Below the pieces are notes generated by a model. The model was not told the origin of the DNA and ran no database searches. It saw only the letters and a list, made by a program, of their open reading frames with translations. Made by a program: the position numbers and the translations under genes. Below, piece by piece: positions 14,264 through 50,377 of a DNA stretch of 64,000 nt. Source of the DNA: an uncultured Bacilli bacterium (GTDB taxonomy: Bacteria; Bacillota_I; Bacilli_A; RF39; UBA660); contig CAKPHU010000005.1 in assembly GCA_934162125.1 (NCBI GenBank), positions 64,528-128,527 of the forward strand, in the 5' to 3' direction. Numbering within the stretch: position 1 is the first letter of the stretch; the number at the start of each line of letters is the position of its first letter.

Positions 14264-15103
14264 TTAAAAGTCATTTTTGTTTTTATAAGTACATGATGCG
14301 CATAAAGGTTCTGATGGTTTATGGTTTTGAAATGATTTTTTTAGTTTTTGGTATCGTTCTGTTGCCATAATATTTTCTAGAGTATCAGTATAGATGTTAC
14401 CTAGATTAATAATACCTGAAGCATCTAGACAACAAGGTACTACCGTACCATCAACTAGAATAGCTAGATGAGTTTTTAGGGCATGACAATAACCATTTGA
14501 TTTTTCTTCTGTTACCGTAGGCCAGATAAACTCATTATCTTTATCCACATAAATATTGGAAGAAATTTTAACGTTTTGTTCTTTATAAAGTTTATCCACA
14601 ATTTGTGGGGATAAATTGTAGTAGTCTTTTAACTTTTCCACTATTTCTGTGGATTTTTTATCTAAAGTAGAATTACTTAAAGTCCATAGTCTATAAATTA
14701 CAGTAATGTCTTTAGGTAATTTATCAACACTTTGAAAAATGTTTTCAAAATAATTTGGATAGTTATTTTCAGAGTGAAGAGAAAAATTTACTTTTTTTAG
14801 AGCTTTAGAATTTTTTAAGTCATCTATTCTTTGAGAAAAAAGGGTTCCATTAGTAGTTAGATTTACTTTTAAGTCATTTTCTTCTGCTATTTTTAGAAAC
14901 TCTTTCAAGTCTTTATGAAGGAGTGGCTCTCCTTTGACATGAAGATAGATGTAGTCAGTATGAGATTTTATTTTAGAGATGATATTTTTAAATTCTTCAA
15001 TTGTCATAGTTCTTTTTGGTTTAGATGTTTTACTACAAAAACGGCAAGAAAGATTACAGCAATTCGTTATTTCAATATAGATTTTTTTAAAGGTCTTTTT
15101 CAT
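14264..15103 (-). CDS. Radical SAM protein with a C-terminal SPASM/twitch-type Cys cluster
   Basis: N-terminal CNLSCRFC (CxxxCxxC) and a C-terminal Cys-rich segment [14 protein letters not shown]...CASC. Its start overlaps the uvrB stop by 17 nt, so it is probably co-transcribed with uvrB. Confidence 0.75.
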
Positions 15104-17054
15104 TGGTTCCTAACTTCATTTCAAATAAGATGTCACGCAATTCCATAGCTCTTTCAAAATCTAAGTTCTTAGCTGCTTCACGCATTTCTCTTTCGACATT
15201 ATCAATCATTAGAGCAAGTTCTTTCTTAGTTGGTTTCTTAGTCTTTTCTTTCTTAGTATCATCAACGTTAGTAATAACATCACGAATTTCTTTAATTATT
15301 GTTTTAGGTACAATACCATGTTCTTTATTGTATTCCTCTTGAATATGACGACGACGAGCTGTTTCAGTGATAGCTTCATTCATAGAATCAGTTATTTTAT
15401 CACCGTACATTATAACATGTCCGTTAGCATTTCTAGCACAACGTCCGATAGTTTGAATTAAACTTCTAGTACTTCTTAAGAATCCTTCTTTATCAGCATC
15501 TAGAATCGCAATTAAAGATACTTCAGGTATATCAAGACCTTCTCTTAATAAGTTAATTCCAACAAGAACATCATATTTGCCACTACGTAAGTCATGAATT
15601 ATTTGAAGTCTTTGAAGTGTTTTAACTTCAGCATGTAGGTAAGCAACTTTAATATCTAATTCTTTTAAGTAGTTAGTCAATTCTTCAGCCATACGAATAG
15701 TTAACGTTGTGACTAAAACTTTTTCTTTTTTAGCAATGCGATCATTTATCTCAGATACTAAGTCATCTATTTGTCCTTCAGTTTTACGAACTTCAATAGT
15801 TGGGTCCAGAAGACCAGTTGGTCTAATTATTTGTTCAACAAACTCGCCATGTGTATCGGCCAACTCTTTATCACCAGGTGTTGCGGAAACATAAATTACT
15901 TGATTTATCTTCTGTTCAAACTCTTCATATTTTAAAGGTCTATTATCAAGCGCACTAGGCAATCTGAAACCATAATCAACAAGATTCTGTTTACGGGCTC
16001 TATCACCATTAAACATGCCTTTTACTTGAGGAAGAGTAACATGAGATTCATCTACTACTAATAAGTAATCTTTTGGGAAAAAGTCCATTAAAGTAGTTGG
16101 TGTTTCTCCTCTTTTACGACCAGCCATAGGAGCAGAATAGTTTTCAACCCCAGAGCAAAAGCCAGTCTCTTCAAGCATTTCAATATCATAGTTAGTTCTT
16201 TGCTCTAGACGTTCAGCTGCTAGAAGTTTATTTTCTGATTTTAGTTCAGCTAGACGTTCTTCTAGTTCTACTTTGATACGTTCAATTCCTTGATGAAGTT
16301 TTTCATCACTAACAACGAAGTGACTAGCGGGAAAGATACTAACATTTTTCATACTACTTATAATGTGACCAGTTAAGGTATCTATTTCACTAATACGATC
16401 TATTTCATCGTCAAAGAATTCAATACGATATCCCGTTGTCTTTTGATTGGCAGGAATTATTTCTAAGACGTCTCCACGAACACGAAAAGTACCACGTTTA
16501 AAGTCAAGGTCATTACGTTCATATAACATATCTACTAGTTTTTCTAAGACTTTATTTCTTTCTATTTTTTCTCCAGTAGATAGAGTTAACATTTTACTTT
16601 TGTATTCCTCTACTTCACCAATACCATATATGCAGGAAACGGAAGCAACAACAATAACATCTTTTCTAGATAAAAGTGCAGAAGTTGCGGCATGACGTAA
16701 TTCATCTATTTCATCATTAATTGATGAGTCTTTTTCAATATAAGTATCAGTAGATGGAACATAAGCTTCTGGTTGATAGTAATCGTAATATGAAACAAAG
16801 TACTCTACTTTATTTTCAGGAAATAGCTCTTTAAGCTCAGAATAAAGTTGACCAGCAAGAGTCTTATTATGAGCAAGCACTAAAGTAGTTTTATTAGTTT
16901 GGGCTATAACATTGGCAATAGTAAAAGTCTTACCTGTTCCAGTTGCACCTAGTAGGACTTGTTCTTTTTTACCTGCATTTAGGCCATCTACAAGTTCTTT
17001 GATAGCTTCTGGTTGATCTCCTGATGGTGAATATTTTGAAACTAGTTTAAACAT
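15087..17054 (-). CDS. uvrB: Excinuclease ABC subunit B
   Basis: 655 aa. Walker A GATGTGKT, helicase motifs and a UvrB C-terminal UVR domain. Confidence 0.97.
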
Positions 17055-17146: not shown

Positions 17147-18070
17147 TTATGAAATATTAAAAAGTTCTTGTATAGCTTTTTTATAAATGTCTTTGGCAAT
17201 ATTATAACCATCTTTATTTTCTTTAATTAAATTATCTGTCATAATACCACTGTTTACTTCTAAAACATAGTATTTGTTTTCCGTAGTTTTAATTATATCA
17301 ATACTTACAAAGCCAGTGGTTACTTTTAAAAAGTTTTGAATAGTTGAGACTATATCTTCTTTTATTTTAGGCGAAATATCAAAACTCATTTTGGCACCAC
17401 GTGATAAGTTGAATTTCCAATCGTAAGTATATTTTTCATCTTTTGCTAGAACTTTATCTTTATTTTCATCATCGTAATCAGCAAAATATTCTTGATTAAA
17501 CTCTATTAATAAATCTTTAATAGTACTTTTTCCATCACCAATAATTTCTGGTTTTATTTTTTTATACATTAGAACTACTTCGCCATTTAGGACAATTAGT
17601 CGATATTCATTTAAAGCTTCATAGTAAGGACAAACGCTTAAAGCATGATGTTTTTTAGATAGTTCATGATACTTAGAATTAAGTTCCTTGAAGTTCTTGT
17701 AGTGATAGACATCTCGACCACAGGCACCATTATTTATTTTTAGAACGACATCTTTTTGATATTTTTCAAAGAGTTTTTTTAGATATGTTGTGCCTTTAAA
17801 TTTTTTGGCATATTCTTCTTTAAAACTGTCGCTATAAATTAGTTCATGTTCAACTGCTGGTATGTTTAAATAATTTAGATATTCATAAGTTGCATATTTA
17901 TCGTCATAGATGATACCTAAAGAATGAGTATTATTGTCAAATTTATAGCCAGAAATAGTCTTTACTTGACTTTTATACGATAAGATCATTATCCAGTTTT
18001 TGGAAATATAAGTGTAGTCAATTGATAATTCATCGCAGATTTCTTCGATTATTTTGTTAAATGTGGGCAT
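17147..18070 (-). CDS. Putative ATP-grasp fold protein
   Basis: 307 aa. The central KINNGACGRDV and IIGDGKSTIKDLL segments resemble ATP-grasp ligases (RimK/Ddl-like). Tentative. Confidence 0.35.
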   Translation of the reverse strand: MPTFNKIIEEICDELSIDYTYISKNWIMILSYKSQVKTISGYKFDNNTHSLGIIYDDKYATYEYLNYLNIPAVEHELIYSDSFKEEYAKKFKGTTYLKKLFEKYQKDVVLKINNGACGRDVYHYKNFKELNSKYHELSKKHHALSVCPYYEALNEYRLIVLNGEVVLMYKKIKPEIIGDGKSTIKDLLIEFNQEYFADYDDENKDKVLAKDEKYTYDWKFNLSRGAKMSFDISPKIKEDIVSTIQNFLKVTTGFVSIDIIKTTENKYYVLEVNSGIMTDNLIKENKDGYNIAKDIYKKAIQELFNIS

Positions 18071-18139
18071 ACTTTCACCTGCTTTCTAAGTATATATTAT
18101 ACAATAAAATACGTAAAAAAAAGAACTATAAAGTTCTCC

Positions 18140-18436
18140 TTAGTTATTGAATGTTTGAGCAACGTCTTTATCAGTATCGATATTTCTATTAGTAACTTCA
18201 GCAATATGATTTACCATTGCGATTACTTTATCATAGAATACTTGATAATTCTTTCTTAGCTCTTCATAACGTCCATTTGAAACGTCTGCTCCAGAACTTT
18301 GCCAATTTTCTCCAAATAATTCTGTCATGCTTCTATCAACGTTATTAAATATTTCTAACATATCGTTAGCATCTGATTGAATAGTTGTTGCTAAAGAATA
18401 TGCTTGTTCATAATCTTTCTCTTCAAATTCGTTCAT
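18140..18436 (-). CDS. WXG100/ESAT-6-like small helical protein (paralog of 44274-44570)
   Basis: 98 aa, helix-turn-helix sized, with ENWQSSGA near the centre. Alignable to the 44274 ORF. Confidence 0.55.
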   Translation of the reverse strand: MNEFEEKDYEQAYSLATTIQSDANDMLEIFNNVDRSMTELFGENWQSSGADVSNGRYEELRKNYQVFYDKVIAMVNHIAEVTNRNIDTDKDVAQTFNN

Positions 18437-18446
18437 ACTTTACCTC

Positions 18447-18749
18447 CTAATCAAATAAATTTTGAGCACGAACTGTTGATTCTTGTTCATTTTCATCAAA
18501 TCTTTGTGCACCACTCATTATTTTTTCACCAAATTCGTTTAATAATTCTTTAAACTCATTTAAGTTTTGAACTTGATTATCTACTTGAGTACTGAATTCA
18601 GTAGCAGCTGGTCCTCTCCAAATTTCCATTAAACTTTCTTTATGAGATTTTAAATCAGTTATTTTGCCATTAAATTCTTCTGCATCTCTTACTGTTGAAT
18701 TTCCATTGTCATACATATCATTAGTATTAACTTTTAAACCGTTTTGCAT
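18447..18749 (-). CDS. WXG100 family protein (EsxA-like; paralog of 44570-44878)
   Basis: 100 aa with the canonical central motif EIWRGPAATEF (W-x-G...A..F). Confidence 0.7.
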   Translation of the reverse strand: MQNGLKVNTNDMYDNGNSTVRDAEEFNGKITDLKSHKESLMEIWRGPAATEFSTQVDNQVQNLNEFKELLNEFGEKIMSGAQRFDENEQESTVRAQNLFD

Positions 18750-18825
18750 AATTAACCTCCTATCATTAATTACATTTTAGCATAGTATTTTTTTTAATTA
18801 AAGTTTTTTAACGTTTGTTTACATA

Positions 18826-19746
18826 TTATTCGCCAACAAAATAAGTTTTCCATAAGTATTGAGCATCTTTAACTGTTGGAGCGTTATTAATTAAGTCTTT
18901 TACTAGTAGAGCTTGTGAATTTGTATAGCCAGATCCTTCAGTCATTTCAGCAATGGCAAAGTCCATTTGAACATCTACATTACTTGGATCAAGACCTTTT
19001 TCCTCTGCAAATTTAAATAGATTTGCTTTTCTTTCATCGTTCCATTTAAAGATTCCGTATCCATTACCATTTTCAGCAATTGTGGAAGTAACATTAGTAC
19101 CATCTTTAGCTTCATTGATAATACCTTTGATAGCTTGATCTGTGAAACCATTTTCTCCGAACTTATTAGTAATATTAGATTCAACTGTACTATCAATTGT
19201 AGTGTCTGTTCCAATTGGAGTTGTAACTTCTCCTGGATCGTCAGCATCATCTTCTGGTTCTGGTGTTGTATCTGGTTCAGAATAATCAGAGCCTCCAGCG
19301 TCTCCTCCAGAGTAACTTCCTCCAGATGATCCACCATAGCTACCACCTGAAGAACCACTATAACCACCGCTTGAGCTATCATAATAACCATCTGATGTAG
19401 CAGTACTATCAGCATTTACACCATCTGTTGCTTCTGTCTCTAGAGCAGTTTCTGCTTCGCTGATATAATCTTCGAATTTAAATACCATTGAACTTTGTAA
19501 GTCTTCTTGGGTATTCATTACATCAGTTATAAAACTAGATGCAGCTTTTACTTTTTGACCAGCCATAGAAATGTTATTTGCTATAGCTTGAGCAGCACCT
19601 CTGAAATTAAATTCAGCACTATCGATTGCATTAGCAGCTACAGAAGTAGCTAGTTCATCAAATTGACTAGAAAGGCTTTCTAATCCAGTTACTGCCTCTG
19701 TTAATTTTTGTGAATCCGTTTTAAAAATATTTCCCAACAATGACAT
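18826..19746 (-). CDS. Modular effector-like protein: WXG/LXG-type helical N-domain, Gly/Ser-rich linker, and a C-terminal phage-tail-lysozyme-like (Phage_lysozyme2-type) cell-wall hydrolase domain
   Basis: 306 aa. Helical N-terminus, then (GGYSGSSGGSYGGSSGG) low complexity, then a C-terminus GIFKWNDERKANLFKFAEEKG...MDFAIAEMTEGSGY resembling the GLFQWN-type lysozyme domain. Confidence 0.55.
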   Translation of the reverse strand: MSLLGNIFKTDSQKLTEAVTGLESLSSQFDELATSVAANAIDSAEFNFRGAAQAIANNISMAGQKVKAASSFITDVMNTQEDLQSSMVFKFEDYISEAETALETEATDGVNADSTATSDGYYDSSSGGYSGSSGGSYGGSSGGSYSGGDAGGSDYSEPDTTPEPEDDADDPGEVTTPIGTDTTIDSTVESNITNKFGENGFTDQAIKGIINEAKDGTNVTSTIAENGNGYGIFKWNDERKANLFKFAEEKGLDPSNVDVQMDFAIAEMTEGSGYTNSQALLVKDLINNAPTVKDAQYLWKTYFVGE

Positions 19747-19768
19747 AATACTTTCCCCTTTCTATCTT

Positions 19769-20071
19769 TTAAACACCATCTATATTTGTTCCAACTTCAT
19801 TATCCGTTTTAGCATATTCGGTAGCCGTATCTTTTAAATAATTTGAGAAGTTAGTTAAATCAGCAACATCTTCTAGAATTCCACCAATATCTTCTTGCCA
19901 TGCTTCTACTAGGCTATCAGCTGCTTTTCCTGATAATAGATTATTGTTATAAATATTACTTAACTCTGTATTTGCATTTTGAAGCATAGTATTTAATTTT
20001 TCTTTACTAGATTCAATTGTACTTGCTCCCTTATCAAAAAGAGAATAATCTTTTGCTTCGAAATCAGTCAT
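19769..20071 (-). CDS. LXG/WXG-like small helical protein. Homologous to the N-terminal domain of the 46199-47008 protein.
   Basis: 100 aa. NLLSGKAADSLVEAWQ aligns with VFMGPVAEECVNLI of 46199-47008, an (L/F)xG motif. Confidence 0.5.
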   Translation of the reverse strand: MTDFEAKDYSLFDKGASTIESSKEKLNTMLQNANTELSNIYNNNLLSGKAADSLVEAWQEDIGGILEDVADLTNFSNYLKDTATEYAKTDNEVGTNIDGV

Positions 20072-20081
20072 CTTATCACCT

Positions 20082-20369
20082 CTATATTCTTTTGGCAGCT
20101 AATGCTTTATCTGCTTCCTCGATTTTATCTGCTAGTTTGTTTAAATAAATAGACATAGCTTCGATTTTCAAAATTTTATCTTTTAATTGTGCATCTTTTT
20201 CAGTGTAAGAATTACTAAATGCTTCTTTGGCGATTCCATTCCAATCTGATGTATCGGCTGTTAATTCTGTTTTTCCTGCGTCTAAGTCAGCTTTAGCTTG
20301 GCGTGCTAGAGTATCTAATTGTTTTGCAGCTTGTCTTACTTCGTCAAAATGACATTCTATAACTGACAT
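20082..20369 (-). CDS. WXG100 family protein (paralog of 44966-45253)
   Basis: 95 aa. SDWNGIAKEAF canonical WxG motif. Good SD (GTGAGGG) upstream. First gene of cassette A. Confidence 0.7.
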   Translation of the reverse strand: MSVIECHFDEVRQAAKQLDTLARQAKADLDAGKTELTADTSDWNGIAKEAFSNSYTEKDAQLKDKILKIEAMSIYLNKLADKIEEADKALAAKRI

Positions 20370-20483
20370 AATGTGCCCTCACTTTCTACTATCTTATAAT
20401 TTATTATAACATATTTTTTTATTTTTAATTATTTTTTAAATATAAAGGGCAATAATTTACAGTTTAATTGATTTTTTTTAAAA

Positions 20484-20514
20484 TAAAAAAAGGCTCTTTA
20501 AAAGCCTTTTTTGT
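20484..20514 (-). terminator. Rho-independent terminator (bidirectional hairpin AAAGGCT-ctttaaa-AGCCTTT with flanking A and T runs)
   Basis: Perfect 7-bp stem at 20489-20510 overlapping the stop of the 20498-21478 gene. The U-run is on the minus strand. It separates that gene from cassette A. Confidence 0.5.
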
Positions 20515-21478
20515 GTTTAATTAACATTTTTGGGTTCTTTAAGGGCTTTTCTTGAAAGCCTAAAACTTCTTCTGATTCATGTTTTATTTGGGAATCTTTA
20601 CCAGAAATAAAGTCTAAGTAATCAACACCTGTATATGGTGTGGTAAAGGAGAAATCAGAAGTTTCTTCATAGTAGAGACCATTGCGATAAGAAAGGGCAA
20701 AACCATCAAAATAATTTTTCATATTTTGTTCAGTTAAAGGCATATAACCCTTTTTTAGAATTGTGCTGGCAACATTTAAGCGGTCTTCTGTCATGGTCAT
20801 AAAACATCCTGGTAGACAGCCAGAAATTCCCATGACTCCTAATCTGTTTAAAGAATTTGTTTTTTCCACAAAAAACTGTCGATAAGTACAATCTACTAAG
20901 TATTTTGAACCTTTAATTTTGACAATATTGAAGAAATGGAAGCCATCTCCACCTAAAAGATTAGCTTTTTCATCAAAGCCAGGGTGGATAACTACTTTTT
21001 TGCATGGAATAGAATGCTGTTTACAAATTTTTTCCACATAATTTGCGGAAACATAACAATAATTAGTAAAAGATAAATCTTCAATTCCTTTACGATTAAA
21101 GATTGGATGATAACTACGAGTAGCTAAGTATCCTCTTGTCTCATGAACGAGCCATGATAATATTTCTTCGGCAGAAGCTGATGATGATGGAGCTGATTTT
21201 TCTTTATCTTTTTGATATTCTGGGAGAGATTCAATTATAAATCCTTCAGGAAGAGCCATTTCGCAATCAGTAAGACGTTCTCTAAGAAGAACATAAGCTA
21301 TATTTATCTTACCATCCATGTAATAGTCAGGTCCTACATCTTTTATAAATTGATAAGCCTTATCTAATTCTTTTTTTGCTTCATCTAAGCTAGGTGCAGT
21401 TTTAATGTTTTTAGCATAAGTTGACATTTTATCTAGATAAGACATTTCTTCTTGATATGTTTTTTGAAATATATACAT
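20498..21478 (-). CDS. Transglutaminase-like superfamily protein (papain-like Cys-His-Asp fold)
   Basis: 326 aa. NYCYVSANYVEKICKQHSIPCKKV matches the transglutaminase-core consensus (G-x-C-x-x-[FY]-[AS]...R..GIPAR). A downstream His (GFHFFNIV) and Asp (LVDCTY) sit at appropriate spacing. Confidence 0.55.
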   Translation of the reverse strand: MYIFQKTYQEEMSYLDKMSTYAKNIKTAPSLDEAKKELDKAYQFIKDVGPDYYMDGKINIAYVLLRERLTDCEMALPEGFIIESLPEYQKDKEKSAPSSSASAEEILSWLVHETRGYLATRSYHPIFNRKGIEDLSFTNYCYVSANYVEKICKQHSIPCKKVVIHPGFDEKANLLGGDGFHFFNIVKIKGSKYLVDCTYRQFFVEKTNSLNRLGVMGISGCLPGCFMTMTEDRLNVASTILKKGYMPLTEQNMKNYFDGFALSYRNGLYYEETSDFSFTTPYTGVDYLDFISGKDSQIKHESEEVLGFQEKPLKNPKMLIKHKKGF

Positions 21479-21572: not shown

Positions 21573-23306
21573 CTATGAATTTGAGTTTTCATTCAAATAT
21601 AAGTTTTGGTAAACTTTGGATTTTTTTAAGAGTTCGGCATGAGTACCATAATTTTCTAACTTTCCTTTGTCTATAATATTGATAATGTCAGCATCAACTA
21701 TTGTAGAAAGACGATGAGCAACAATTATTACAGTATGATCTTTTACTAAATTATCAATAGTCTTTTTAATATATTCTTGTGATTCATTGTCAAGGGCTGA
21801 TGTAGCTTCATCAAATAAAATGATTTTAGTATTTAACATCAGCGTTCTAGCAATCGCAAGACGTTGTTTTTGACCACCTGATAAGTTTACGCCACCTTCA
21901 CCAATAATAGTGTCATATTGTTTTGGTAAAGACATGATGTATTTATCGATGTAGGCTTTCTTACAATATTTTCTTACTTCTTTTAAAGTTACATTTGGTT
22001 TTACTAATTTAAAGTTATCAATTATAGATAAATTAAATAAGAATGGTGCTTGTCTAATAATAGAAATGTTTTTTCTTAGATCTTTTTCTGTTAAATCTTT
22101 GATATCTATATCATCAATTAAAATTTGACCTGTTGTAGAATCAAAATAACGTAATAATAAGTTAAAGATTGTTGATTTACCATTACCACTCTTACCTACA
22201 ATAGCAACTTTTTTATGAGGTTCAATTTTTAGAGAAAGGCCTTTTAAAGTGAAGTCTTCATCTTCTGAGTATTTAAACTTAACATCTTTAAATTCAATAT
22301 TTCCTTTTATTGACTTAACTTTCTTAGTACCAAATTTCTCATCTTCATATAATTCATTATTAATAATTTCACCAATTCTCTTTAAAGAAACAGTTACTTT
22401 ATTATAACTTACACCAAAATCAGAGATACTTTCTACAACTTCATCAATACGCCAGATATACATTTCTAGCATAATGAATGTGGCATAAGTTATTTCGCCT
22501 TGGATAAAGAAATATCCAGCAGTTAGCAAAATAATAAATTGTAGCGAAAAGTAAACTAAATTATTTAATCCGTAATACCAGACTTCATAATTTCTAATTT
22601 TTTTGTTTTTATTAAACAAATCTGTTAATTGTTTTAAAATATTTTCTTCTATATTATTTTTGATTCCTAGAGATTTTATCTCTCTGATACCTGTAATATT
22701 TTCAGTTGCAACTTTAACGTAGTTGTCAGATTCTTTTTTAATAGACTCTTGTGTCTTCTTTATTTTTGGGAAGAACTTAGTAGAAATAAAGCCCATGGCT
22801 ACTCCGAAGATAACTATTTCTAAGCCTAGAACCCATGAGATAGAAAATGCTAAAACAGTGATAGCAACTACTACTAGTGCTTTACACAATAATTTAATTA
22901 GTTTAGCAAGTAGTTCCATTACACGATCTGGATCTGTGTATAGACGATTGATGAATTCACCTACTCCGATATCTTCAAAAGCTTTAGCTGGTAGATTATC
23001 AATTTTATGATATAAATCCATACTAACATTTTTCATAAATTTTAATTCCAAACTGTTATATAGTTTATCTTTTGGTATTTGAAGGATTGCATATAAAATA
23101 ATGTATGTTCCTTCCCATGAAGCTAGATAAATAAAGAATTGTTTTAAATCTTTTAAAATTAAGAATTCTAGAGCTTTACCCCAGAAGTAAGCTGCGAATA
23201 AAACAGGTAAATAAGTTAGAACCACTAAGAACATATAAAGAAATAATTTTAGTTTGTCTTCTTTTATGTAGTGCCATAGAATTTTAAAACTATCCATTTT
23301 TTTCAT
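21573..23306 (-). CDS. ABC transporter, fused permease/ATP-binding (ABCB-type exporter)
   Basis: 6-TM N-domain plus Walker A GKSGNGKST, signature LSGGQKQR and Walker B ILFDEATSALD. Start placed at MKKMDSF (23306), which has an AAGAGGTGA SD. The ORF-track start is 23342. Confidence 0.85.
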   Translation of the reverse strand: MKKMDSFKILWHYIKEDKLKLFLYMFLVVLTYLPVLFAAYFWGKALEFLILKDLKQFFIYLASWEGTYIILYAILQIPKDKLYNSLELKFMKNVSMDLYHKIDNLPAKAFEDIGVGEFINRLYTDPDRVMELLAKLIKLLCKALVVVAITVLAFSISWVLGLEIVIFGVAMGFISTKFFPKIKKTQESIKKESDNYVKVATENITGIREIKSLGIKNNIEENILKQLTDLFNKNKKIRNYEVWYYGLNNLVYFSLQFIILLTAGYFFIQGEITYATFIMLEMYIWRIDEVVESISDFGVSYNKVTVSLKRIGEIINNELYEDEKFGTKKVKSIKGNIEFKDVKFKYSEDEDFTLKGLSLKIEPHKKVAIVGKSGNGKSTIFNLLLRYFDSTTGQILIDDIDIKDLTEKDLRKNISIIRQAPFLFNLSIIDNFKLVKPNVTLKEVRKYCKKAYIDKYIMSLPKQYDTIIGEGGVNLSGGQKQRLAIARTLMLNTKIILFDEATSALDNESQEYIKKTIDNLVKDHTVIIVAHRLSTIVDADIINIIDKGKLENYGTHAELLKKSKVYQNLYLNENSNS

Positions 23307-23332
23307 ATTATTCACCTCTTTTTTCAAAATAA

Positions 23333-23358
23333 AAGAGATCACATAATAGTGACCTCTT
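23333..23358 (-). promoter_or_regulatory. Hairpin (AAGAGATCAC-ataata-GTGACCTCTT) between the small upstream ORF and the ABC exporter start. Possible attenuator.
   Basis: 9/10-bp inverted repeat followed on the minus strand by U-rich UUAUUUUG, located between the leader ORF stop (23371) and the ABC gene SD. Confidence 0.3.
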
Positions 23359-26444: not shown

Positions 26445-28664
26445 TTAACGTTTATAAGTACTGGCATTTACATTATTTATAATACTTATCTTATTACCAT
26501 CAGAAGTAATTAAAATGTTACCAGTCGATGAATCACTTTGTCGATAAGTAGTAATTCCATAACTGTTTAGTTTAGCTTTATTTTCTGCACTTGGATATTT
26601 AGGTGCATAATAATTTGGAACTATTACATATTTTGGCTTAGCAGTACTTAAGAATGTACTAGAAATGTAACCGTTTCCATGATGTGGATATTTTAAAACA
26701 TCTATCTTTAGGCTTATTCCTAGTGATGATGCATTACTTTGAAGAGCATCAACGCTTAACTGACTACCAGCATCTCCAGTAAACATAAAGGTATTATTTT
26801 TATATTTAAGAATGAAGATGAAGGAATTTTCATTTTTGTTGCTACCAATTTTATTAGGAGCTAAGAAGTATAAAGTCATGTCGCCAACTACAACCTTCTT
26901 TGGTGGTTTAATAATTTTTGGTGTTTTCTTACTACTTCTTAATGTATCTACAATGTGTTCTTGATCGAATGATGTACAAGTTCCATTCTTAACACAATTG
27001 AAGATGTCATCTGGATAATATATTTCACTTACTTGGAAGTTATTAATTATATCTGCTTGAGCTGCAATGTGGTCGTTGTCTAAGTGAGAACCAATCATTA
27101 AATCTATTTTCTTAACGCCTAATTGATTTAAGTATGGTATTACTTTTGTACGACAATCCCATCTTCCACTATCAATAAGAATAGTTTTACTACTTGTTCT
27201 AATTAGGATTGCATCATCGTAGTGACCACTTGCGATAAAGTGAATTTCAATACCTTTTAGAGCGATGCCTGTATTGCCACCTGTGTTACCTCCGGTATTG
27301 CCACCTGTGTTTCCACCAGTATTTCCTCCAGTGTTGCCTCCGGTATTTCCGCCGGTATTTCCGCCGGTGTTACCTCCAGTATTTCCTCCAGTGTTACCAC
27401 CTGTGTTACCTCCAGTATTTCCTCCAGTGTTGCCTCCGGTATTTCCGCCTGTATTGCCTCCAGTGTTACCGCCTGTATTTCCACCGGTATTTCCTCCAGT
27501 GTTGCCTCCGGTATTTCCGCCTGTGTTACCTCCAGTATTTCCTCCGGATGTACCATTTTTGTTTTCTAATTTACAAGTTATTGTTTTAACATTTCCAGCT
27601 TTATCATATATTTTTACTTCTGCTATGGCCATTTCTTTACCAATAACTATTTTTGAAACATTGTATGCATTGCCATTTATTACATATCTGTCAATACCAA
27701 CATTGTCTTTGGCATTAATTGTGATAATTGATTGACCATTTTTATAATATCCACTACAACTACCAGTTGGTGGTGTTTTATCAATTGTTCCAACAGAGAT
27801 AGTTTGTTCAATACAGTTGTTTTTAGCGTCATAAATGTAGAACTTATATTCTCCGTTTTTTGTTACTTTATATTGAATTGTAGTATTGGTACTCGTTTGA
27901 CCATTTGGTAATTTTATGTAGTTGTAATATGGACTATCAGTTTTAAATTCAATAACTTTGTAGCCATCAGAATAATTGTTACTTGCAAGACCTAAGCTAT
28001 AATTCATTTCATATACTATGACCGTTCGAACAGCTTTGGCTTCTTTACCACTACTATTTTTAGCAGTATAGGTTACTTGATAAGTTCCAACATTGTTAGT
28101 ATTTACGTTACTATCTACTTTAATACTACTAGTAAGATCACCATCTTTACCATCCTTAGCCGTAGCACCAGGATCTGTAAATGCTGTTCCTTTTAGGACA
28201 TGGAAGGTTTCTCCACCTTTTATTTTAATCATGAACTCATCATAAATAATAACGTATCTTGTTAACTGAGAAGTTATACCATTATAATTGAAGTCATAGG
28301 TTACTTGATATTTTCCTTTAGTAGTAGTATCTACTTCTCCTGTAATGGTTACATACTTTCTTAAGTCTTCTTTTGAACCAGTTAGAGAAAAACCTGGTTC
28401 TTCGTAAGTGTCACCAATATATAATTTGGTTACTTTATCACCATTTAAACTAAAACGTACTGTTTCTGTTCCAGTAGTGATAACCTCTTCTGCTTTGTTT
28501 TCACTTTGTTTGTTGGGTGTGAATAAAAATAAGACTAAGGCAAAAACAAAAACACCGACTGTAATACCGCAAATTATATTTGTTATTTTCTGAGCTTGGG
28601 TTTTCTTTTTTTTCTTTTTCTTTTTGTTTTTATTTAAATTTTCAAAACCAAAATTCATATCCAT
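26445..28664 (-). CDS. Membrane-anchored surface protein: poly-Lys N-terminus, one TM helix, Ig-like (DUF5011/Big-type) domains, a (GGNT)x~23 linker, and a C-terminal ComEC-like MBL-fold metallo-hydrolase domain
   Basis: 739 aa. TM segment [25 protein letters not shown]-domain motifs [11 protein letters not shown]...ILIDSG and [11 protein letters not shown] later in the sequence. Confidence 0.7.
27266..27545 (-). repeat. In-frame 12-nt tandem repeat, about 23 units, encoding (Gly-Gly-Asn-Thr)n inside the surface protein gene. Units differ mainly at synonymous positions.
   Basis: Directly visible as ctgtattgccac / ctgtgttacctc / cggtattgccac and so on. The two opposite-frame ORFs in the track (PVLPP.. 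and EATLEEI..) are artefacts of this repeat. Confidence 0.9.
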
Positions 28665-44273: not shown

Positions 44274-44570
44274 TTAGTTATCTATTTCAACAGCATTAGT
44301 AGCAGCAGCATCAGCAGCTTCATAAGTATTAGCAGCTTCATTGATTACTTTATTCATTTCTACTACTTGTTCATAGAATGCAGAGTATTTTTCATGAAAT
44401 TGTCTCATATAATCTGATTCAATATCACGAGCACCAATACTATTCCAGTGATCTGAAAATAAACCGTTCATAACTATATCTTCATTATCAAATACTTCTT
44501 TGATTTGATTTGCTAAATTTAAAATTTCATTTGCACTACTACGTGCTTGTTCATAATTATCTATTTGCAT
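44274..44570 (-). CDS. WXG100/ESAT-6-like small helical protein (paralog of 18140-18436)
   Basis: 98 aa with DHWNSIGA. Its SD is embedded in the end of the upstream gene. Last gene of cassette B. Confidence 0.55.
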   Translation of the reverse strand: MQIDNYEQARSSANEILNLANQIKEVFDNEDIVMNGLFSDHWNSIGARDIESDYMRQFHEKYSAFYEQVVEMNKVINEAANTYEAADAAATNAVEIDN

Positions 44571-44878
44571 TAAAAACCAATCCTTCCTGCACTACTTGCT
44601 ACGTCATTTTCAGCCTCTTCTAAGATGTTAGCTGCCCTTCCTAAACCTTCACCTAAATTAGCAACTTGCTCATTAAATGTATTTAACAATACAGCAAGAT
44701 CTTCATATGCAGCCATAAATTTTTCTCTACCACCACCAGATTTCCAGTTAGAGCCTAATTCATCAACTTTTGCTTTTAATGATGATAATTTTTCACGAAA
44801 TTCTTCTGAGTTTTCAATTGTTTCTCTACTGTTGCGGTTCATACCACCAAAATCAACTTGTAAACCATTTGTATTCAT
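44570..44878 (-). CDS. WXG100-like protein (paralog of 18447-18749)
   Basis: SNWKSGGG central motif. Start placed at MNTNGLQ (44878), preceded by an AGGAGG SD. The ORF-track start at 44905 appears to be a TTG. Confidence 0.6.
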   Translation of the reverse strand: MNTNGLQVDFGGMNRNSRETIENSEEFREKLSSLKAKVDELGSNWKSGGGREKFMAAYEDLAVLLNTFNEQVANLGEGLGRAANILEEAENDVASSAGRIGF

Positions 44879-44965
44879 TAATAAATACCTCCTACTTATT
44901 TTCAATATATCGTTTAATTGTTTACTTGTATATATTTTATATTAAAATGTTACATAATTTTACAT

Positions 44966-45253
44966 CTAAATACTTAAACTTGCTAACTGATTTTCTAAAT
45001 CTTGGATACTTTTAGCAGATGATTTGATAAATTCACCAACTTCACTCATTTTTTCTGCTTTTGCAGTAGCTAGTTCAACTTGACTTGTACATTGAGCAGT
45101 AAAATTATTTTTAGCTTTTCCACTCCAAGCCGAAAGATCGCTTGTAACATTAGTATCATAATTTTGAATAGCTGTTTTTATATTGTTGGCAGCTGAACAT
45201 AACTTTTCTCCTGCTGCTATTACTTCAGCAAAATCACATACATATTTGGCCAT
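44966..45253 (-). CDS. WXG100 family protein (paralog of 20082-20369)
   Basis: 95 aa. SAWSGKAKNNF canonical WxG motif. AAAGGAG SD. Confidence 0.7.
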   Translation of the reverse strand: MAKYVCDFAEVIAAGEKLCSAANNIKTAIQNYDTNVTSDLSAWSGKAKNNFTAQCTSQVELATAKAEKMSEVGEFIKSSAKSIQDLENQLASLSI

Positions 45254-45267
45254 TGATAAACTCCTTT

Positions 45268-46188
45268 CTATATTTCGACTGTTTCATTTCCTGAACTTTG
45301 ATTATCAGTTGAGCTAGCTAAATTAGTTAATATAGTACTTTCATTTACTATTTTGTTAGCATTAAGGTCAAATTGTCCATTATTTGTAACAGTATATTTA
45401 GTCATATCAATATTTATATTATTTTCATTTTCACTATTCCAATTTTCATTAACGATAAAACTAACATTAGATTTAGCATTGTCAGTAGTAGGCTTTTCAA
45501 AACTGATACCAACAATACACTTAACTTCTTCACCATTATTGTTTTTGAAAATAATTTCATCACCAACTGTTCCGATTGATTCATTACATAAAACTACATA
45601 GTGATCGTCAATCATGGCGTAACCATTGCCATTATAGGTAACTTTATTTATATAGTCGTTCTTTAGCGAATCATCTAATTTATCTAAATTAATACCAACA
45701 TGATTTACTTCTTCAATTTTATCTGTAATAGCATTTTCATCTTTTTCTTTGTCTTCTGGCTCTGTGTTTGTTTCATCTAATCCCGAAATAGCACTAGCTA
45801 TTCCAGCTGCTATGCCTCCTGAAATTGTACTTGATGATCCTCCAGAGTAATAACTTCCTGAATAGCCTCCGCTTGATGAACTACTACTTGAATATCCACT
45901 ACTAGCAGTTTTATTAGTTTCTGTTTTGGCTAGCGTTAATGACTTTTGAAGGGAAGTGTGAGCACTAACTACATTATCAGCATAAATAGATGTATTTTTG
46001 AATTTTGTAACACAGGCTTCAACATTTGCGATCATTTGAGCTTTAACTGATGAGAAGTCAAAACCATCTTCACAACTTGTATCATAACCACTTATCGAAT
46101 CTACAACACTTGAGATTTGATTTGCTAAAGAATTTATTGTATTAGCTCCTGATATGACAGGATCACAATCTAACATAAATACACTCAT
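45268..46188 (-). CDS. Modular effector-like protein: WXG/LXG-type helical N-domain, Ser/Gly-rich linker, and a C-terminal beta-rich domain of unknown function
   Basis: 306 aa. Same architecture as 18826-19746, but the C-terminal domain (NGYAMIDDHYVVLCNESIGTVGDEIIFKNNNGEEVKCIVG...) has no motif I recognise. Confidence 0.5.
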   Translation of the reverse strand: MSVFMLDCDPVISGANTINSLANQISSVVDSISGYDTSCEDGFDFSSVKAQMIANVEACVTKFKNTSIYADNVVSAHTSLQKSLTLAKTETNKTASSGYSSSSSSSGGYSGSYYSGGSSSTISGGIAAGIASAISGLDETNTEPEDKEKDENAITDKIEEVNHVGINLDKLDDSLKNDYINKVTYNGNGYAMIDDHYVVLCNESIGTVGDEIIFKNNNGEEVKCIVGISFEKPTTDNAKSNVSFIVNENWNSENENNINIDMTKYTVTNNGQFDLNANKIVNESTILTNLASSTDNQSSGNETVEI

Positions 46189-46198
46189 ATATTATCTC

Positions 46199-47008
46199 CT
46201 ATTTTGGGTCCCATTGATCAAGACCATATTGTTCAACAATACTAATTAAATTTTCACTATAGGTTTGACTTGTTGCATAACCGCATTGTTTAACAGCGAC
46301 GCAAGCCTCCTTATAATTAGTAGCCTCTAAAACAGGCTTGTATCTGTCTTTAGTTAACAGTTCAGCATGATCAATAATAGAATCATTTACTGAATCATAA
46401 TCTCTGAAATCAGCACGTGTTTGATATCTAGTACCATCAGCATTTTGTTCTCCAGTTAAACAATTTACTCTTTTGCCAGTCCAACTACTACCAGCTTTAA
46501 TACCAAAAATATTGTTACCAATTCTTGATCTACCCCAACCTGTTTCTAGTATTGCTTGAGCAAGTGTTAAAGAAGGTAAAACTCCATATTTATTATAGGT
46601 TTCTATGGCACCAGCTTTGATTTCATTTACAAAGTCTAATCTGTAACCTGATAAGTTACCTGGATTTTTATAATCACTGTTGATTGCTGTTTGACTAACT
46701 CCATTAAGTTTTAATTGAACTGCTTGATTTGCTTCACTATCAGCATTTTTGTATGTTGCGGAAGCTGTAGTAAGAAAGTCTGCTATAGTTTTGAAATTTT
46801 CACCAATAGTATTTAGAGATGTATCCAATTCATTAATTAAATTAACACATTCTTCTGCTACTGGTCCCATGAAAACACTTTCGTTGCTAAGTTTGGTTAA
46901 GGAATCATTTAGGCTGGTATTACATTCAGTTACTTTGGAATTTGTTAAAGTAGTAGTAGATATTGCATTATTGAAAATGCCATAATCTGTAATTGAAACT
47001 TTATCCAT
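46199..47008 (-). CDS. LXG/WXG-like helical N-domain fused to a GH73 N-acetylglucosaminidase (FlgJ/mannosyl-glycoprotein endo-beta-N-acetylglucosaminidase-type) domain
   Basis: 269 aa. The N-terminus aligns with the 19769-20071 protein. The C-terminus carries LPSLTLAQAILETGWGRS, the GH73 consensus around the catalytic Glu. Confidence 0.7.
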   Translation of the reverse strand: MDKVSITDYGIFNNAISTTTLTNSKVTECNTSLNDSLTKLSNESVFMGPVAEECVNLINELDTSLNTIGENFKTIADFLTTASATYKNADSEANQAVQLKLNGVSQTAINSDYKNPGNLSGYRLDFVNEIKAGAIETYNKYGVLPSLTLAQAILETGWGRSRIGNNIFGIKAGSSWTGKRVNCLTGEQNADGTRYQTRADFRDYDSVNDSIIDHAELLTKDRYKPVLEATNYKEACVAVKQCGYATSQTYSENLISIVEQYGLDQWDPK

Positions 47009-47019
47009 TCTATCACTCC

Positions 47020-47916
47020 TTATTTATTTCCTTCATATCTTAAGTAACCATCCCATCCACTGCTATAAAATGGAACAACGTTTATTTCTTTACCAGTTGA
47101 ATCACCATCTTGGCCGTCTCTATCACCATGGGCTCCAATCATTTGTCCATCGCCTATATACATTTCGGTATGAGAATTTTCATCTAATAAAACGTCACCT
47201 GGTAATAGGTCTTCTGCTCTTGGTGTACCTGGATACCATGTAAATCCACATTGAGTAAATGATCTTTTCATATTTCCTGTGAATCCTGCTCCGGCTTCTT
47301 TAACCGGGATACCCGCATTTTCATAAGCATTGATGACAAAAGATGAACAGTCATAATTTGGATTACCATTTCTTGTCTTTTGTGAGTAACCGTGTGTGTC
47401 GTCATTGGCAATGTCAAAGGCCCAATTGATAGCATTTTGAATATATGGAGAACTCGATCTTATTGCATAAGAATTAGAACCAGATGTGCTTGTGGTACTA
47501 TCTCCATTGATACTAACAGTGGCTAATTTAACAGAGGCAGCACTCTGTAGTTGACTTTCAATTTGAGTTTTTAAAGTTTCCATTTCCGACTCGTAGCTAT
47601 TCATTTCAGAAAGATAACTACGGGCTGAACTTGTATTATTAGCAGCGTATGCAGTATTGTAGTTACTCTTAGCAATATTATATTTTGGTTTTAGTTCTTT
47701 ATATTTGGCATATAAATCACAGGCAGATGCAAAAGCTGTGAACTGAGTTTTTAAGCTACTTGCATATTCTGAACTAAAATCATTTGCTTTAGATGAAAAG
47801 TTATTATATGAGTTACCTTTCCATGATGAAGCAAGCTCATTTACGCAATTAGAATAATTTGTTATAGCTGAAGTAATACTACTTAAATCAGAATTAACTT
47901 GACTTCCACTTACCAT
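47020..47916 (-). CDS. WXG100-domain N-terminus fused to an NlpC/P60 cysteine peptidase domain
   Basis: N-terminal LASSWKGNSYNNF (W-x-G). C-terminal NYDCSSFVINAY...NSHTEMYIG (NlpC/P60 Cys and His). Start placed at the second ATG (47916), preceded by GGAGG. The ORF-track start is 47928. Confidence 0.7.
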   Translation of the reverse strand: MVSGSQVNSDLSSITSAITNYSNCVNELASSWKGNSYNNFSSKANDFSSEYASSLKTQFTAFASACDLYAKYKELKPKYNIAKSNYNTAYAANNTSSARSYLSEMNSYESEMETLKTQIESQLQSAASVKLATVSINGDSTTSTSGSNSYAIRSSSPYIQNAINWAFDIANDDTHGYSQKTRNGNPNYDCSSFVINAYENAGIPVKEAGAGFTGNMKRSFTQCGFTWYPGTPRAEDLLPGDVLLDENSHTEMYIGDGQMIGAHGDRDGQDGDSTGKEINVVPFYSSGWDGYLRYEGNK

Positions 47917-48059
47917 ATTTACCTCCATTTATTTTATCTTAATATTATTTTATCATTATAAATAAAGGAAAAACAATTTTATTTGTGAAAAGACAAGATG
48001 TTTACATTTTTTAGGACATAGTGCTTTCTCTATTATAAATTATTTTTGTTTTAAATATG

Positions 48060-49748: not shown

Positions 49749-50377
49749 ACCTGGTATTGTAACATCTGTTCCACACTTTTTTTATAGTATGTAAGTTCTG
49801 CTTCCGAATCAGATAAATTTTTAAAACTAAAACATTTCTTAGCTTCTTCTTCGGTTAAACTGTGTCTAGCAGGAAGTATTTCAGTAACGCCATCTTTATT
49901 CATTACAGATATTATGTTCTTGCCTTTTATTGGTTGCCTATTATTTACGTACTTTCTGCCGAGATGAACATCTTGGGCAGTTATTGTTTTAGATGATTTT
50001 AAGTTTATTTTCCAACCAGTTTGATCACAACTTACCCAATAATAATCATTGGTACCATCTTTATTTAGTGTTATTACAACATATGCATCTAACCAGTCTG
50101 AAAAAGGGCTTTTTGTTATGTCACTATTATCATTTAACAAATTGTTTATATGAATATAATAGGTCGTATCATAATCATCAATTTTAAGTGTTTCATTTGT
50201 AACCATTGCATTAGCAGTGCTTACAAAACTAAGTGCATCTTGAACATATACTTTTGCCTTAGATTTATTAATAATACTACTTACAGATGGAATTGCTATT
50301 GCCATTAAAATTCCCATTATTACTATGACTGCTAGTAACTCTACTAGCGTAAAACCTTTTTTATTACTATACCACAT
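49745..50377 (-). CDS. Type IV pilin / pseudopilin-like protein with a class III (prepilin peptidase) signal
   Basis: MWYSNKKG|FTLVELLAVIVIMGILMAIAIP is the canonical prepilin leader, with G-F cleavage and methylation of F and Glu+5. 210 aa. Confidence 0.75.
   Translation of the reverse strand: MWYSNKKGFTLVELLAVIVIMGILMAIAIPSVSSIINKSKAKVYVQDALSFVSTANAMVTNETLKIDDYDTTYYIHINNLLNDNSDITKSPFSDWLDAYVVITLNKDGTNDYYWVSCDQTGWKINLKSSKTITAQDVHLGRKYVNNRQPIKGKNIISVMNKDGVTEILPARHSLTEEEAKKCFSFKNLSDSEAELTYYKKSVEQMLQYQV

Follow-up and report, generated by a model that had tools for sequence, protein, structure and literature searches.

What is the function of a compact operon in which four small WXG100-type genes surround a gene for a lysozyme-like protein in an uncultured, low-GC member of the gut Bacilli? 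The question is posed by a 64,000-nucleotide stretch of contig CAKPHU010000005.1 (the window), in which five genes, A1 to A5, form cassette A and six others, B1 to B6, form cassette B (Table 1). Cassette A is probably a self-contained operon of substrates of a type VII secretion system (T7SS) of the T7SSb class. This reading is based on the WXG100 matches of A1, A2, A4, and A5, the Phage_lysozyme2 (PF18013) match of A3, the gene layout shared with relatives, an essC gene that abuts a related cassette (locus L024), a YxxxD motif in A2, and purifying selection.

The initial annotation described five co-directional genes, and all five are open reading frames (ORFs) where it placed them. The short motifs that it quoted are also present in the encoded proteins: SDWNGIAKEAF in A1; the GGYSGSSGG linker, GIFKWNDERKANLF, and MDFAIAEM in A3; EIWRGPAATEF in A4; and ENWQSSGA in A5. 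The genes are tightly packed on the minus strand and constitute a transcription unit that reads from 20369 to 18140. The cassette consists of five soluble genes only, and no hidden ORFs were found in it. The ratios of nonsynonymous to synonymous substitution (dN/dS) were calculated against the orthologous cassette in locus L034 and were 0.04–0.10 for all five genes, with A1 at 0.04. All five cassette A genes are under purifying selection.

The four small proteins have the size of WXG100 proteins, about 100 residues, and were compared to the Pfam WXG100 model (PF06013; gathering score, 27.3 bits). A1 (E=1.4e-9) and A4 (E=4.2e-9) exceed the gathering score, which upholds their initial identification as WXG100 proteins. 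A2 (25.9 bits, E=1.2e-5) and A5 (E=3.3e-5) are slightly under it. NCBIfam also returns WXG100 for the small proteins; TIGR03930 matches A1 with E=4.5e-9, and all four are below the cut-off of that model (44.85). The W-x-G turn is W43-N-G in A1 and W44-R-G in A4; A5 has W-QSS-G, and A2 has none. The description of A5 as WXG-like agrees with its PF06013 score and its similarity to B6 but is qualified by the gathering score that it does not reach. A2 had been called LXG-like. The LXG model (PF04740) matches neither A2 nor A3, even at E<=1, and the label was abandoned. A hidden Markov model (HMM) was built from 16 external N-terminal domains of the B2 type (B2N) and recovered B2 with E=1e-33. The same model matches A2 over its full length, and A2 is therefore a stand-alone copy of the B2N targeting domain, or handle. 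A2 also has a weak full-length match to TIGR04197 (E=0.0055) and the motif Y86-AKT-D90, located at the same position as Y86-KNA-D in B2. Y-K-x-G-D is conserved across the 16 external B2N domains, and the YxxxD of A2 and B2 resembles an export-arm motif. By its profile matches, A2 is a WXG100-superfamily, Lap1-like stand-alone targeting domain and not an LXG protein.

A3 had been described as a helical N-terminal domain followed by a glycine/serine-rich linker and a lysozyme-like domain, and the structure predictions bear this out for the first two parts. AlphaFold2 (AF2) with a 17-sequence alignment placed two helices at residues 12–38 and 48–86 with predicted local distance difference test (pLDDT) values of 80–90 and an F-x-F-x-G motif at the turn between them, and the linker was disordered. 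A single-sequence AF2 run gave a poor model (pLDDT 52) that consisted of one long helix; the 17-sequence alignment improved the N-domain only. The A3 turn has F48-R-G where WXG100 proteins carry W-x-G. Foldseek comparison of the A3 model to the PDB yielded no significant match. The hits were generic helical hairpins, and those to EsxA and ESAT-6/CFP-10 were non-significant. An HMM derived from six external sequences (P0010, P0011, P0043-P0046) matched the N terminus of B3 (E=8e-30) and the N terminus of A3 (E=3e-17); its next-best matches in the window were the WXG100 proteins B4 (7e-4) and A1 (0.04). Profile similarity places the A3 and B3 N-domains in a common WXG100-like family that is without a Pfam model. 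The A3 handle is rare: a search of 1.84 billion representative proteins gave 8 matches at E<=1e-3. Other proteins with this type of handle bear different C-domains: NlpC/P60-ELLD in P0010 and a B3-like domain in P0011, P0043, and P0046. The dN/dS ratio is 0.066 for the A3 N-domain, 0.058 for the C-domain, and 0.23–0.64 for the linker. These data show that both A3 domains are under strong purifying selection and that the linker is relaxed.

The A3 C-domain was searched against PF18013, as the initial annotation had recommended, and residues 190–303 match the model with E=2.8e-14 and 53.9 bits (gathering score, 28.2). The N-terminal lysozyme-like domain of phi29 gp13 (PDB 3CSR) is matched with E=1.2e-4. 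The A3 C-domain is 37% identical to the Twort tail-associated lysin and 28–37% identical to tail lysins across Staphylococcus and Synechococcus phages, and it is only 25–27% identical to the lysozyme2 domains that relatives carry on B2N handles. The closer similarity to phage tail lysins suggests a separate recruitment of the A3 domain. Derivation of the domain from the relatives' B2N–lysozyme2 genes was rejected on these identities. Judged by its profile match, homology of the A3 C-domain to PF18013 is secure, and the domain is atypical. The idea that A3 is a degraded phage tail lysin, and the operon a phage or mobile-element remnant and not a secretion cassette, draws on this similarity, on matches to PHROG tail proteins, and on the NCBI product name of the exact A3 protein family, 'phage tail tip lysozyme [Mycoplasmatota / Tenericutes bacterium]'. 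However, in phage and plasmid records the phage matches are limited to A3 residues ~184–303, the N-domain is found in none, and there is no plasmid match. Moreover, FtsEX-PcsB, uvrA/uvrB, and lgt, the genes around the cassette, are housekeeping genes, and Spo0A is encoded in the flank. It has no integrase or phage structural genes around it, its GC content is like that of its surroundings (29% for the window), and diverged relatives have the same layout at the same chromosomal position. A phage remnant is extremely improbable. A phage or plasmid origin of the whole A3 gene was also considered and rejected, because only the C-domain matches phage and nothing matches plasmids.

Cassette B is a paralog of cassette A. 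B1 has a WXG-like N-domain joined to NlpC/P60-ELLD, B2 has a B2N domain joined to a glucosaminidase, B3 has an N-domain of its own class (B3N) joined to an unknown C-domain, and B4, B5, and B6 are small WXG100 proteins. About 20 independent assemblies have both cassettes on the same contig. Four paralogous pairs had been proposed between them. Three are significant by blastp: A5 and B6 (38% identity, E=1e-12), A4 and B5 (30%, E=2e-8), and A1 and B4 (28%, E=7e-7). The fourth, A2 and the B2 N-domain (24%, E=0.015), is significant with the B2N HMM. A fifth pair, absent from the initial annotation, is formed by the N-domains of A3 and B3; both proteins have 306 residues and the same handle and linker type, and their C-domains are unrelated. 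The small genes of the relatives' cassettes fall into three classes by position. The relatives' first small gene is 46–55% identical to B4 and 21–28% to A1, A4 is 35–44% identical to the second small gene of the cassettes in 10 related loci, and the third is 44–54% identical to A5 and 33–41% to B6. A1 is thus a divergent first member and A5 the better-conserved third copy. A recent duplication of cassette B was rejected on these two comparisons, and sequence similarity indicates that cassettes A and B are old, mosaic paralogs.

The C-terminal half of B3 has the motif GYAxIDxxYVxxCxESxGxVGDxIxF…G…VxCVxG in common with P0011, P0043, and P0046 from other metagenome-assembled genomes (MAGs). Pfam, NCBIfam, PHROG, and the PDB gave no match for this region, which is a third, uncharacterised cargo domain of the conserved cassette. 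The start of B5 is ambiguous. The longest ORF begins at a TTG and encodes 111 residues, and public gene callers use a downstream ATG that gives 102 residues.

Loci L034 and L033 have the same five-gene layout as cassette A, with A3 identities of 85% and 55%, respectively, and the layout and flanks are conserved at 55–85% identity. The L034 contig stops inside the gene downstream of the cassette. Genomes were scanned for further cassettes with a four-sequence N-domain alignment, a nine-sequence alignment being too divergent. The scan identified 14 loci. Their MAGs came from human, rumen, and goat gut and carry the labels uncultured Bacilli, Bacillales, Erysipelotrichaceae, or Mollicutes. The gene order in these 14 loci and in L003 and L006 is one or more handle–hydrolase genes of the B1N, B2N, or B3N class followed by B4-like, A4-like, and A5-like small genes. 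The C-domains swap freely among the three handle classes and comprise NlpC/P60-ELLD, Peptidase_C39_2, CHAP, glucosaminidase, Phage_lysozyme2, and NAGPA. The trio of small partners is conserved in all related loci. L018 has a tandem expansion with three B2N-class and two B3N-class genes. A3 is 94–98% identical across the closest variant clusters recovered for the species, with no C-domain swapping within the species.

Two side observations concern these loci. In seven related loci, the gene immediately upstream of the hydrolase/WXG100 cassette encodes a polytopic membrane protein of ~540–560 residues; in the window, such a gene adjoins neither cassette. A Pfam Polysacc_synt/MurJ-like assignment was confirmed for the L003 and L006 genes only, the others being grouped with them by size, hydrophobicity, and similar N termini. 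L019 is a 340-kb contig (CAZHBS010000001.1) with a Bacilli-type cassette, yet its title reads 'uncultured Muribaculaceae bacterium' (Bacteroidota), which probably reflects mislabelling or contamination of the bin.

The relatives also connect the cassettes to type VII secretion. A complete B-type cassette in L024 is followed directly by a gene encoding a 1542-residue protein with FHA and FtsK_SpoIIIE domains. This protein has 181 close homologs in related MAGs, some of which are named EssC by NCBI. The adjacency of essC in L024 strengthens the type VII link. A DUF4176 gene precedes the small WXG100 genes in L003, and DUF4176 is listed as typical of T7SSb loci (PMC10765036). No signal peptide or hydrophobic segment was detected in the 11 proteins of cassettes A and B, and Sec export is therefore unlikely. 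The essC loci of the relatives encode EssC (FHA and FtsK/SpoIIIE, with one hydrophobic region at ~298–325) and then seven conserved small soluble proteins of about 84, 102, 96, 100, 105, 101, and 156 residues, one of which has a weak WXG100 signal. Pfam matches to EsaA, EssA, EssB, or YukD were found neither in the seven small genes nor in the precomputed Pfam tables of the flanking genes. The seven genes are not close homologs of the cassette proteins. The relatives' essC loci may encode a reduced or very divergent T7SSb.

Some findings weigh against assigning cassette A to exported T7SSb hydrolase substrates, and they concern the secretion apparatus, immunity, and the A3 active site. Neither essC nor any other T7SS core gene was found in the 64-kb window or in the 10 kb on either side. 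T7SSb substrates can be encoded apart from the core locus, as are TspA and the LXG toxins of Bacillus subtilis (PMC10765036). Names did not discriminate the EssC clusters with respect to the window's species, and tetranucleotide correlations were 0.97–0.99 for all loci. Cassette A is without an immunity gene, and no membrane or lipoprotein gene was found inside the cassettes of 11 related loci. In the C-domain, A3 has GIINEAKDGT where gp13, the Twort lysin, and the relatives' lysozyme2 domains have G-[IM]-[ML]-[GA]-N-x-x-x-E-S. A gapless alignment puts Gly216-Thr of A3 at the canonical catalytic Glu-Ser, in which the Glu is Glu45 of gp13. At the second conserved Glu ([YF]-E), A3 instead has Phe303, close to its C terminus (W299-KTYF-VGE); this comparison is to Twort and the relatives' lysozyme2 domains, which have the Glu, as the gp13 stretch compared ends before the W-x-x-[DY]-[FY]-E segment. 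A3 covers positions 4–116 of the 140-position PF18013 model, so the last ~24 positions are absent. The model of the C-domain is of low confidence, and Foldseek gave no significant match for it. These features suggest that A3 may be a weak or inactive enzyme.

The missing core genes leave room for a different export route. The ABC exporter (ABC_membrane+ABC_tran) that the initial annotation noted upstream of cassette A is confirmed and is two genes away, a Phage_holin_4_2 gene in the window could represent a holin-type pathway, and essC is absent from the 84 kb inspected. The ABC exporter is, however, absent at the equivalent position in L033 and from all B-type loci, and it was dismissed as a dedicated route for export, since the gene is not conserved next to the cassettes. 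WXG100-type handles with partners are a T7SS hallmark, and essC abuts the cassette in L024. Export of the cassette A proteins by a route other than a T7SS is very unlikely.

The altered active site raises the idea that A3 has lost catalysis. As such a pseudo-enzyme, it would bind peptidoglycan or serve as an adaptor, and it would be exported with the WXG100 proteins as their structural or anchoring partner. The out-of-register N-x-x-x-E-S, the lost second Glu, and the truncation all fit this idea, and the C-domain is nonetheless under strong purifying selection (ω=0.06). On the other hand, every member of the A3 family has an acidic residue (D/E) one position before the canonical Glu. Shifting the alignment by one residue, as after a deletion in the helix that precedes the motif, brings this acid (Asp215 in A3; Glu in P0006, P0008, and P0009) and the conserved Asn into line with the canonical motif. 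The substrate-groove motif G-Y-G-I-x-x-W is retained. The lysozyme fold is expected to have its catalytic acid at a helix end. A helix is predicted at residues 203–214 of A3 followed by a β-hairpin, which puts Asp215 at the helix end in a region of low confidence (pLDDT 53–80). A pseudo-enzyme is improbable.

If cassette A encodes T7SSb substrates, the WXG100-like hairpin of A3 (~100 residues) would be the export handle, the lysozyme-like domain the cargo, and the disordered linker the connection between them. A1, A4, and A5 would be the three conserved partner classes and A2 a stand-alone handle that supplies the YxxxD motif, all of them being predicted helical-hairpin partners. By analogy to EsaD–EsxBCD, LXG–Lap1–Lap2, and EatA–TapA1/A2, the A3 handle and its partners would form one elongated bundle of helices, a shaft that the EssC ATPase would recognise. 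EssC would export the complex without a Sec signal peptide, with the cargo domain trailing on the flexible linker. Once outside, the cargo would bind or cleave the glycan strands of peptidoglycan. Complex formation, EssC dependence, enzymatic activity, and target are all proposed here by analogy to these systems.

The role of such substrates could be directed outward or toward the producer's own wall. As antibacterial effectors, A3 and the cassette B hydrolases would be exported in the same way and lyse Gram-positive competitors, and the producer would be protected by modification of its own wall. The C-terminal hydrolases are shuffled among three N-domain classes with tandem expansions, as is typical of polymorphic effectors, and the cargo domains resemble phage lysins. 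Antagonism is the best-documented role of the T7SSb (PMC10765036), and one wall glycanase is known to be secreted as a toxin by a T7SS (PMC13444075). Genes for wall modification are found nearby: an ATP-grasp ligase gene at cassette A, an OatA-like gene at cassette B, and FemAB genes in L003. The evidence on the other side is that the cassettes examined contain no immunity-like lipoprotein or membrane gene, that divergent genomes, at about 50% identity, keep the same enzymes in the same gene order, that the closest clusters recovered for the species have nearly identical A3 proteins without C-domain swapping, and that selection is strongly purifying and not diversifying. Taken by itself, the antibacterial explanation is possible and on the unlikely side. 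Granted the T7SS-substrate mechanism, we lean slightly toward remodelling of the self or kin wall or an autolysin function, possibly one that eases passage through the wall as EssH may do (PMC13059805), because there is no immunity gene, the enzyme set is fixed across diverged genomes, and the sequences are nearly identical within the species. Antagonism has somewhat less weight and is favoured by the shuffling of domains between handle classes and the tandem expansions in some relatives; some other role has a small share. The initial term lysozyme-effector operon is therefore accurate for the lysozyme-like domain and its WXG100 partners and is not carried over in the sense of an antibacterial toxin. 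To our knowledge, the T7SS toxin loci characterised to date all have an immunity gene next to the toxin. A function in breaching the wall, as machinery or autolysin, would explain the absence of immunity genes. A doubtful extension of this idea is that the type VII system of the lineage is a stripped-down machine in which the A and B hydrolases are T7 substrates that open the producer's own wall and replace the EsaA conduit and EssH.

The transcription signals define the boundaries of cassette A. A promoter-like extended -10 box is located ~34 nucleotides upstream of the A1 start, and the sequence reads GTGAGGG, a ribosome-binding site, between the box and A1. The promoter scan as a whole showed no enrichment over shuffles, and the A1 box is a consensus match alone. 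The terminator that the initial annotation assigned to the cassette (20484–20514) is real, but it ends the upstream 326-residue gene, because the stop codon of that gene is inside the loop. This terminator insulates cassette A from upstream transcription. The cassette itself ends at a terminator-like hairpin that is weaker and has too few G-C pairs, and the consensus scan skipped it. No Rfam element was found between 17000 and 21700.

The flanking genes required two corrections. Cassette A had been placed just upstream of uvrB, and a RimK-like ATP-grasp gene with its own TATAAT -10 box intervenes. The 326-residue protein encoded upstream had been called transglutaminase-like, a description that has no Pfam, NCBIfam, PDB, or PHROG support; the protein has no database match, and a Cys…His…Asp spacing is visible by eye only. 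The 326-residue and ATP-grasp genes are on either side of cassette A both in the window and in L033; L034 has the 326-residue gene as well. Either gene could be functionally linked to the cassette, for example in wall modification or self-protection. The ABC exporter is represented in L034 by split ORFs only. Upstream of cassette B are genes for an LRR_5 protein and a prepilin-type N_methyl protein, followed by a divergent 739-residue Acyl_transf_3 protein with a C-terminal GDS motif. This OatA-like protein is a possible peptidoglycan O-acetyltransferase. FemAB-family (peptidoglycan cross-bridge) genes are near the cassette in L003 and near the essC loci of L024 and L031. FemABX-like proteins are known immunity factors for secreted bacteriolysins, and the FemAB proximity may be coincidental synteny. 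Just past the right end of the window, locus L010 has a vanG-type set (two-component system, VanW, a D-Ala-D-Ala-ligase-family protein, VanY, Acyl_transf_3, and alanine racemase), which suggests an altered terminus of the peptidoglycan stem peptide in this organism. Elsewhere in the window, a 739-residue protein without a precomputed Pfam match has NCBIfam ComEC/Rec2 and MBL-fold matches over residues ~480–728 and is probably a competence DNA-uptake channel.

Table 1. Coordinates of cassette A, cassette B, and the features discussed. Positions refer to the window unless a locus is named.
Feature	Position	Strand	Basis or remark
Extended -10 box TGtTATAAT, promoter-like	20403..20411	-	Consensus match
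A1, 95 residues, WXG100	20082..20369	-	PF06013, 38.6 bits
A2, 100 residues, stand-alone B2N-class WXG100-like targeting domain	19769..20071	-	External B2N HMM, E=4e-13
A3, 306 residues, handle, linker, and lysozyme-like domain	18826..19746	-	PF18013 and AF2 hairpin
A3 N-domain, residues 1–105, predicted helical hairpin, turn F46-N-F-R-G50	19432..19746	-	AF2 and profile
A3 linker, residues 106–183, predicted disordered, rich in G/S/Y and acidic residues, variable length	19198..19431	-	pLDDT 30–35; indels among homologs
A3 C-domain, residues 184–306 and stop, divergent, C-terminally truncated Phage_lysozyme2	18826..19197	-	PF18013
A4, 100 residues, WXG100, second small-partner class	18447..18749	-	PF06013, 37.0 bits
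A5, 98 residues, WXG100-like, third small-partner class	18140..18436	-	PF06013, 24.5 bits; similarity to B6
Terminator-like hairpin and U-run at cassette A end	18115..18141	-	10-bp stem, ΔG -8.3 kcal/mol, z -2.9 versus shuffles
Intrinsic terminator of upstream 326-residue gene	20486..20512	-	Stop codon of the gene inside the loop
326-residue protein gene	20498..21478	-	
ABC exporter gene	21573..23342		ABC_membrane+ABC_tran
RimK-like ATP-grasp gene	17147..18070	-	
uvrB	15087..17054		
ComEC/Rec2-type gene	26445..28664	-	NCBIfam
Cassette B, six genes B1–B6	44274..47928	-	Profile and blastp
B5, longest ORF	44570..44905	-	TTG start
B3 C-terminal half	45268..45700	-	Shared motif
LRR_5 protein gene	48348..49748	-	
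Prepilin-type N_methyl protein gene	49745..50377	-	
Acyl_transf_3 (OatA-like) gene	50529..52748	+	
essC locus	L024 12169-19172		
essC locus	L028 10001-16999		
essC locus	L031 10001-17010		
Polytopic membrane gene	L003 5351-6964		Polysacc_synt/MurJ-like
Polytopic membrane gene	L006 4150-5802		Polysacc_synt/MurJ-like
Polytopic membrane gene	L015 6336-7994		
Polytopic membrane gene	L016 5699-7351		
Polytopic membrane gene	L019 6560-8188		
Polytopic membrane gene	L022 6442-8106		
Polytopic membrane gene	L026 7098-8783		
FemAB-family genes	L003 13268-15845		
FemAB-family gene(s)	L024 4169-5410		
FemAB-family gene(s)	L031 1968-3209		
vanG-type set	L010 786-7419		

The T7SSb cargo characterised so far consists mostly of LXG toxins that are nucleases, NADases, pore-formers, or a lipid II phosphatase. 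The lineage of uncultured gut Bacilli described here fuses short WXG100-like handles to a set of peptidoglycan hydrolases that includes glycosidases, endopeptidases, and a phosphodiester glycosidase. A 2026 review describes the passage of T7SSb substrates through the thick wall as an open question and the hydrolases encoded in T7SS loci as having no established link to secretion (PMC13492133). If the proteins are exported as proposed, the lineage would be a natural system in which to ask whether a T7SS delivers folded wall hydrolases, and its hydrolases would be candidates for the means by which T7SSb substrates traverse the wall.

Four secretion-related systems and two phage lysins were compared to cassette A. 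Three small Esx partners export EsaD in Staphylococcus aureus (PMC10653861). The EsaD–EsxB/EsxC/EsxD system is similar in that a cargo with a helical N-terminal transport domain is encoded with several WXG100-type export factors of ~100 residues. The EsaD cargo is flexibly joined to a helical shaft, and its small partners are a trio comparable to the conserved B4, A4/B5, and A5/B6 classes. EsaD differs in being a nuclease with an LXG-type domain, an EsaE chaperone, and EsaG immunity, whereas the cassette A handle is a non-LXG domain of ~100 residues with a wall-hydrolase cargo, and neither accessory gene is present. The gene order is also different, as the cassette A partners flank the cargo gene.

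The Streptococcus intermedius modules consist of an LXG toxin, Lap1 (DUF3130), and Lap2 (DUF3958), with an FxxxD motif on Lap1 (PMC9600955; PMC5555719). They share with cassette A a fixed N-terminal targeting domain, a swappable C-terminal domain, and co-encoded small WXG100-like factors. They also share the location of an FxxxD/YxxxD motif on a partner, which corresponds to the YxxxD and weak TIGR04197 match of A2 and is also like the T7SSa export arm. Cassette A differs in having no PF04740 domain, a handle half the length of LXG, and no Tip-like immunity gene. Among the LXG cargoes, TelC degrades lipid II and others are NADases, nucleases, or pore-formers; the cassette A cargo would be a peptidoglycan hydrolase.

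Mycobacterium abscessus EatA–TapA1/TapA2–EatI is built around a T7SSa-secreted arabinanase toxin (PMC13444075). EatA is likewise an envelope glycan hydrolase with a helical N-domain and small helical accessory proteins, and it is encoded apart from the secretion locus. That system belongs to an actinobacterial ESX-4, has a GH183 cargo, and includes the adjacent lipoprotein inhibitor EatI, a type of gene that cassette A does not have. EssH of S. aureus is exported with a signal peptide. EssH is a T7SSb-dedicated CHAP peptidoglycan hydrolase (PMC13059805). It resembles A3 as a wall hydrolase genetically tied to a T7SSb, and a possible rationale is that such an enzyme opens the wall to the apparatus or to its substrates. 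EssH is a single CHAP protein that lacks a WXG100-like handle and is not among the described T7 substrates, whereas A3 is lysozyme-like and has a handle and no signal peptide. In common with A3, the N-terminal domain of phi29 gp13 (PDB 3CSR/3CSQ) and the Twort lysin have a G-[FY]-G-[IL]-x-x-W motif and a helix followed by a β-hairpin. A3 differs from both in its NEAKDG motif, in the loss of the C-terminal third of the domain, and in its fusion to a secretion handle and not to a tail or LytM domain.

Compared to these systems, what is new in cassette A and its relatives is the use of short WXG100-like handles, one of them very rare and unmodelled, together with hydrolase cargo, a conserved partner trio, and no immunity gene, in uncultured gut Bacilli with essC loci in which EsaA, EssA, and EssB are not recognisable. 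The best reading by analogy is that cassette A resembles the effector-plus-partner modules of the T7SSb, the closest being EsaD–EsxBCD and LXG–Lap, although two features that define LXG toxin systems, the LXG domain and the immunity gene, are both missing. This class assignment is fairly secure and would not surprise a T7SS specialist.

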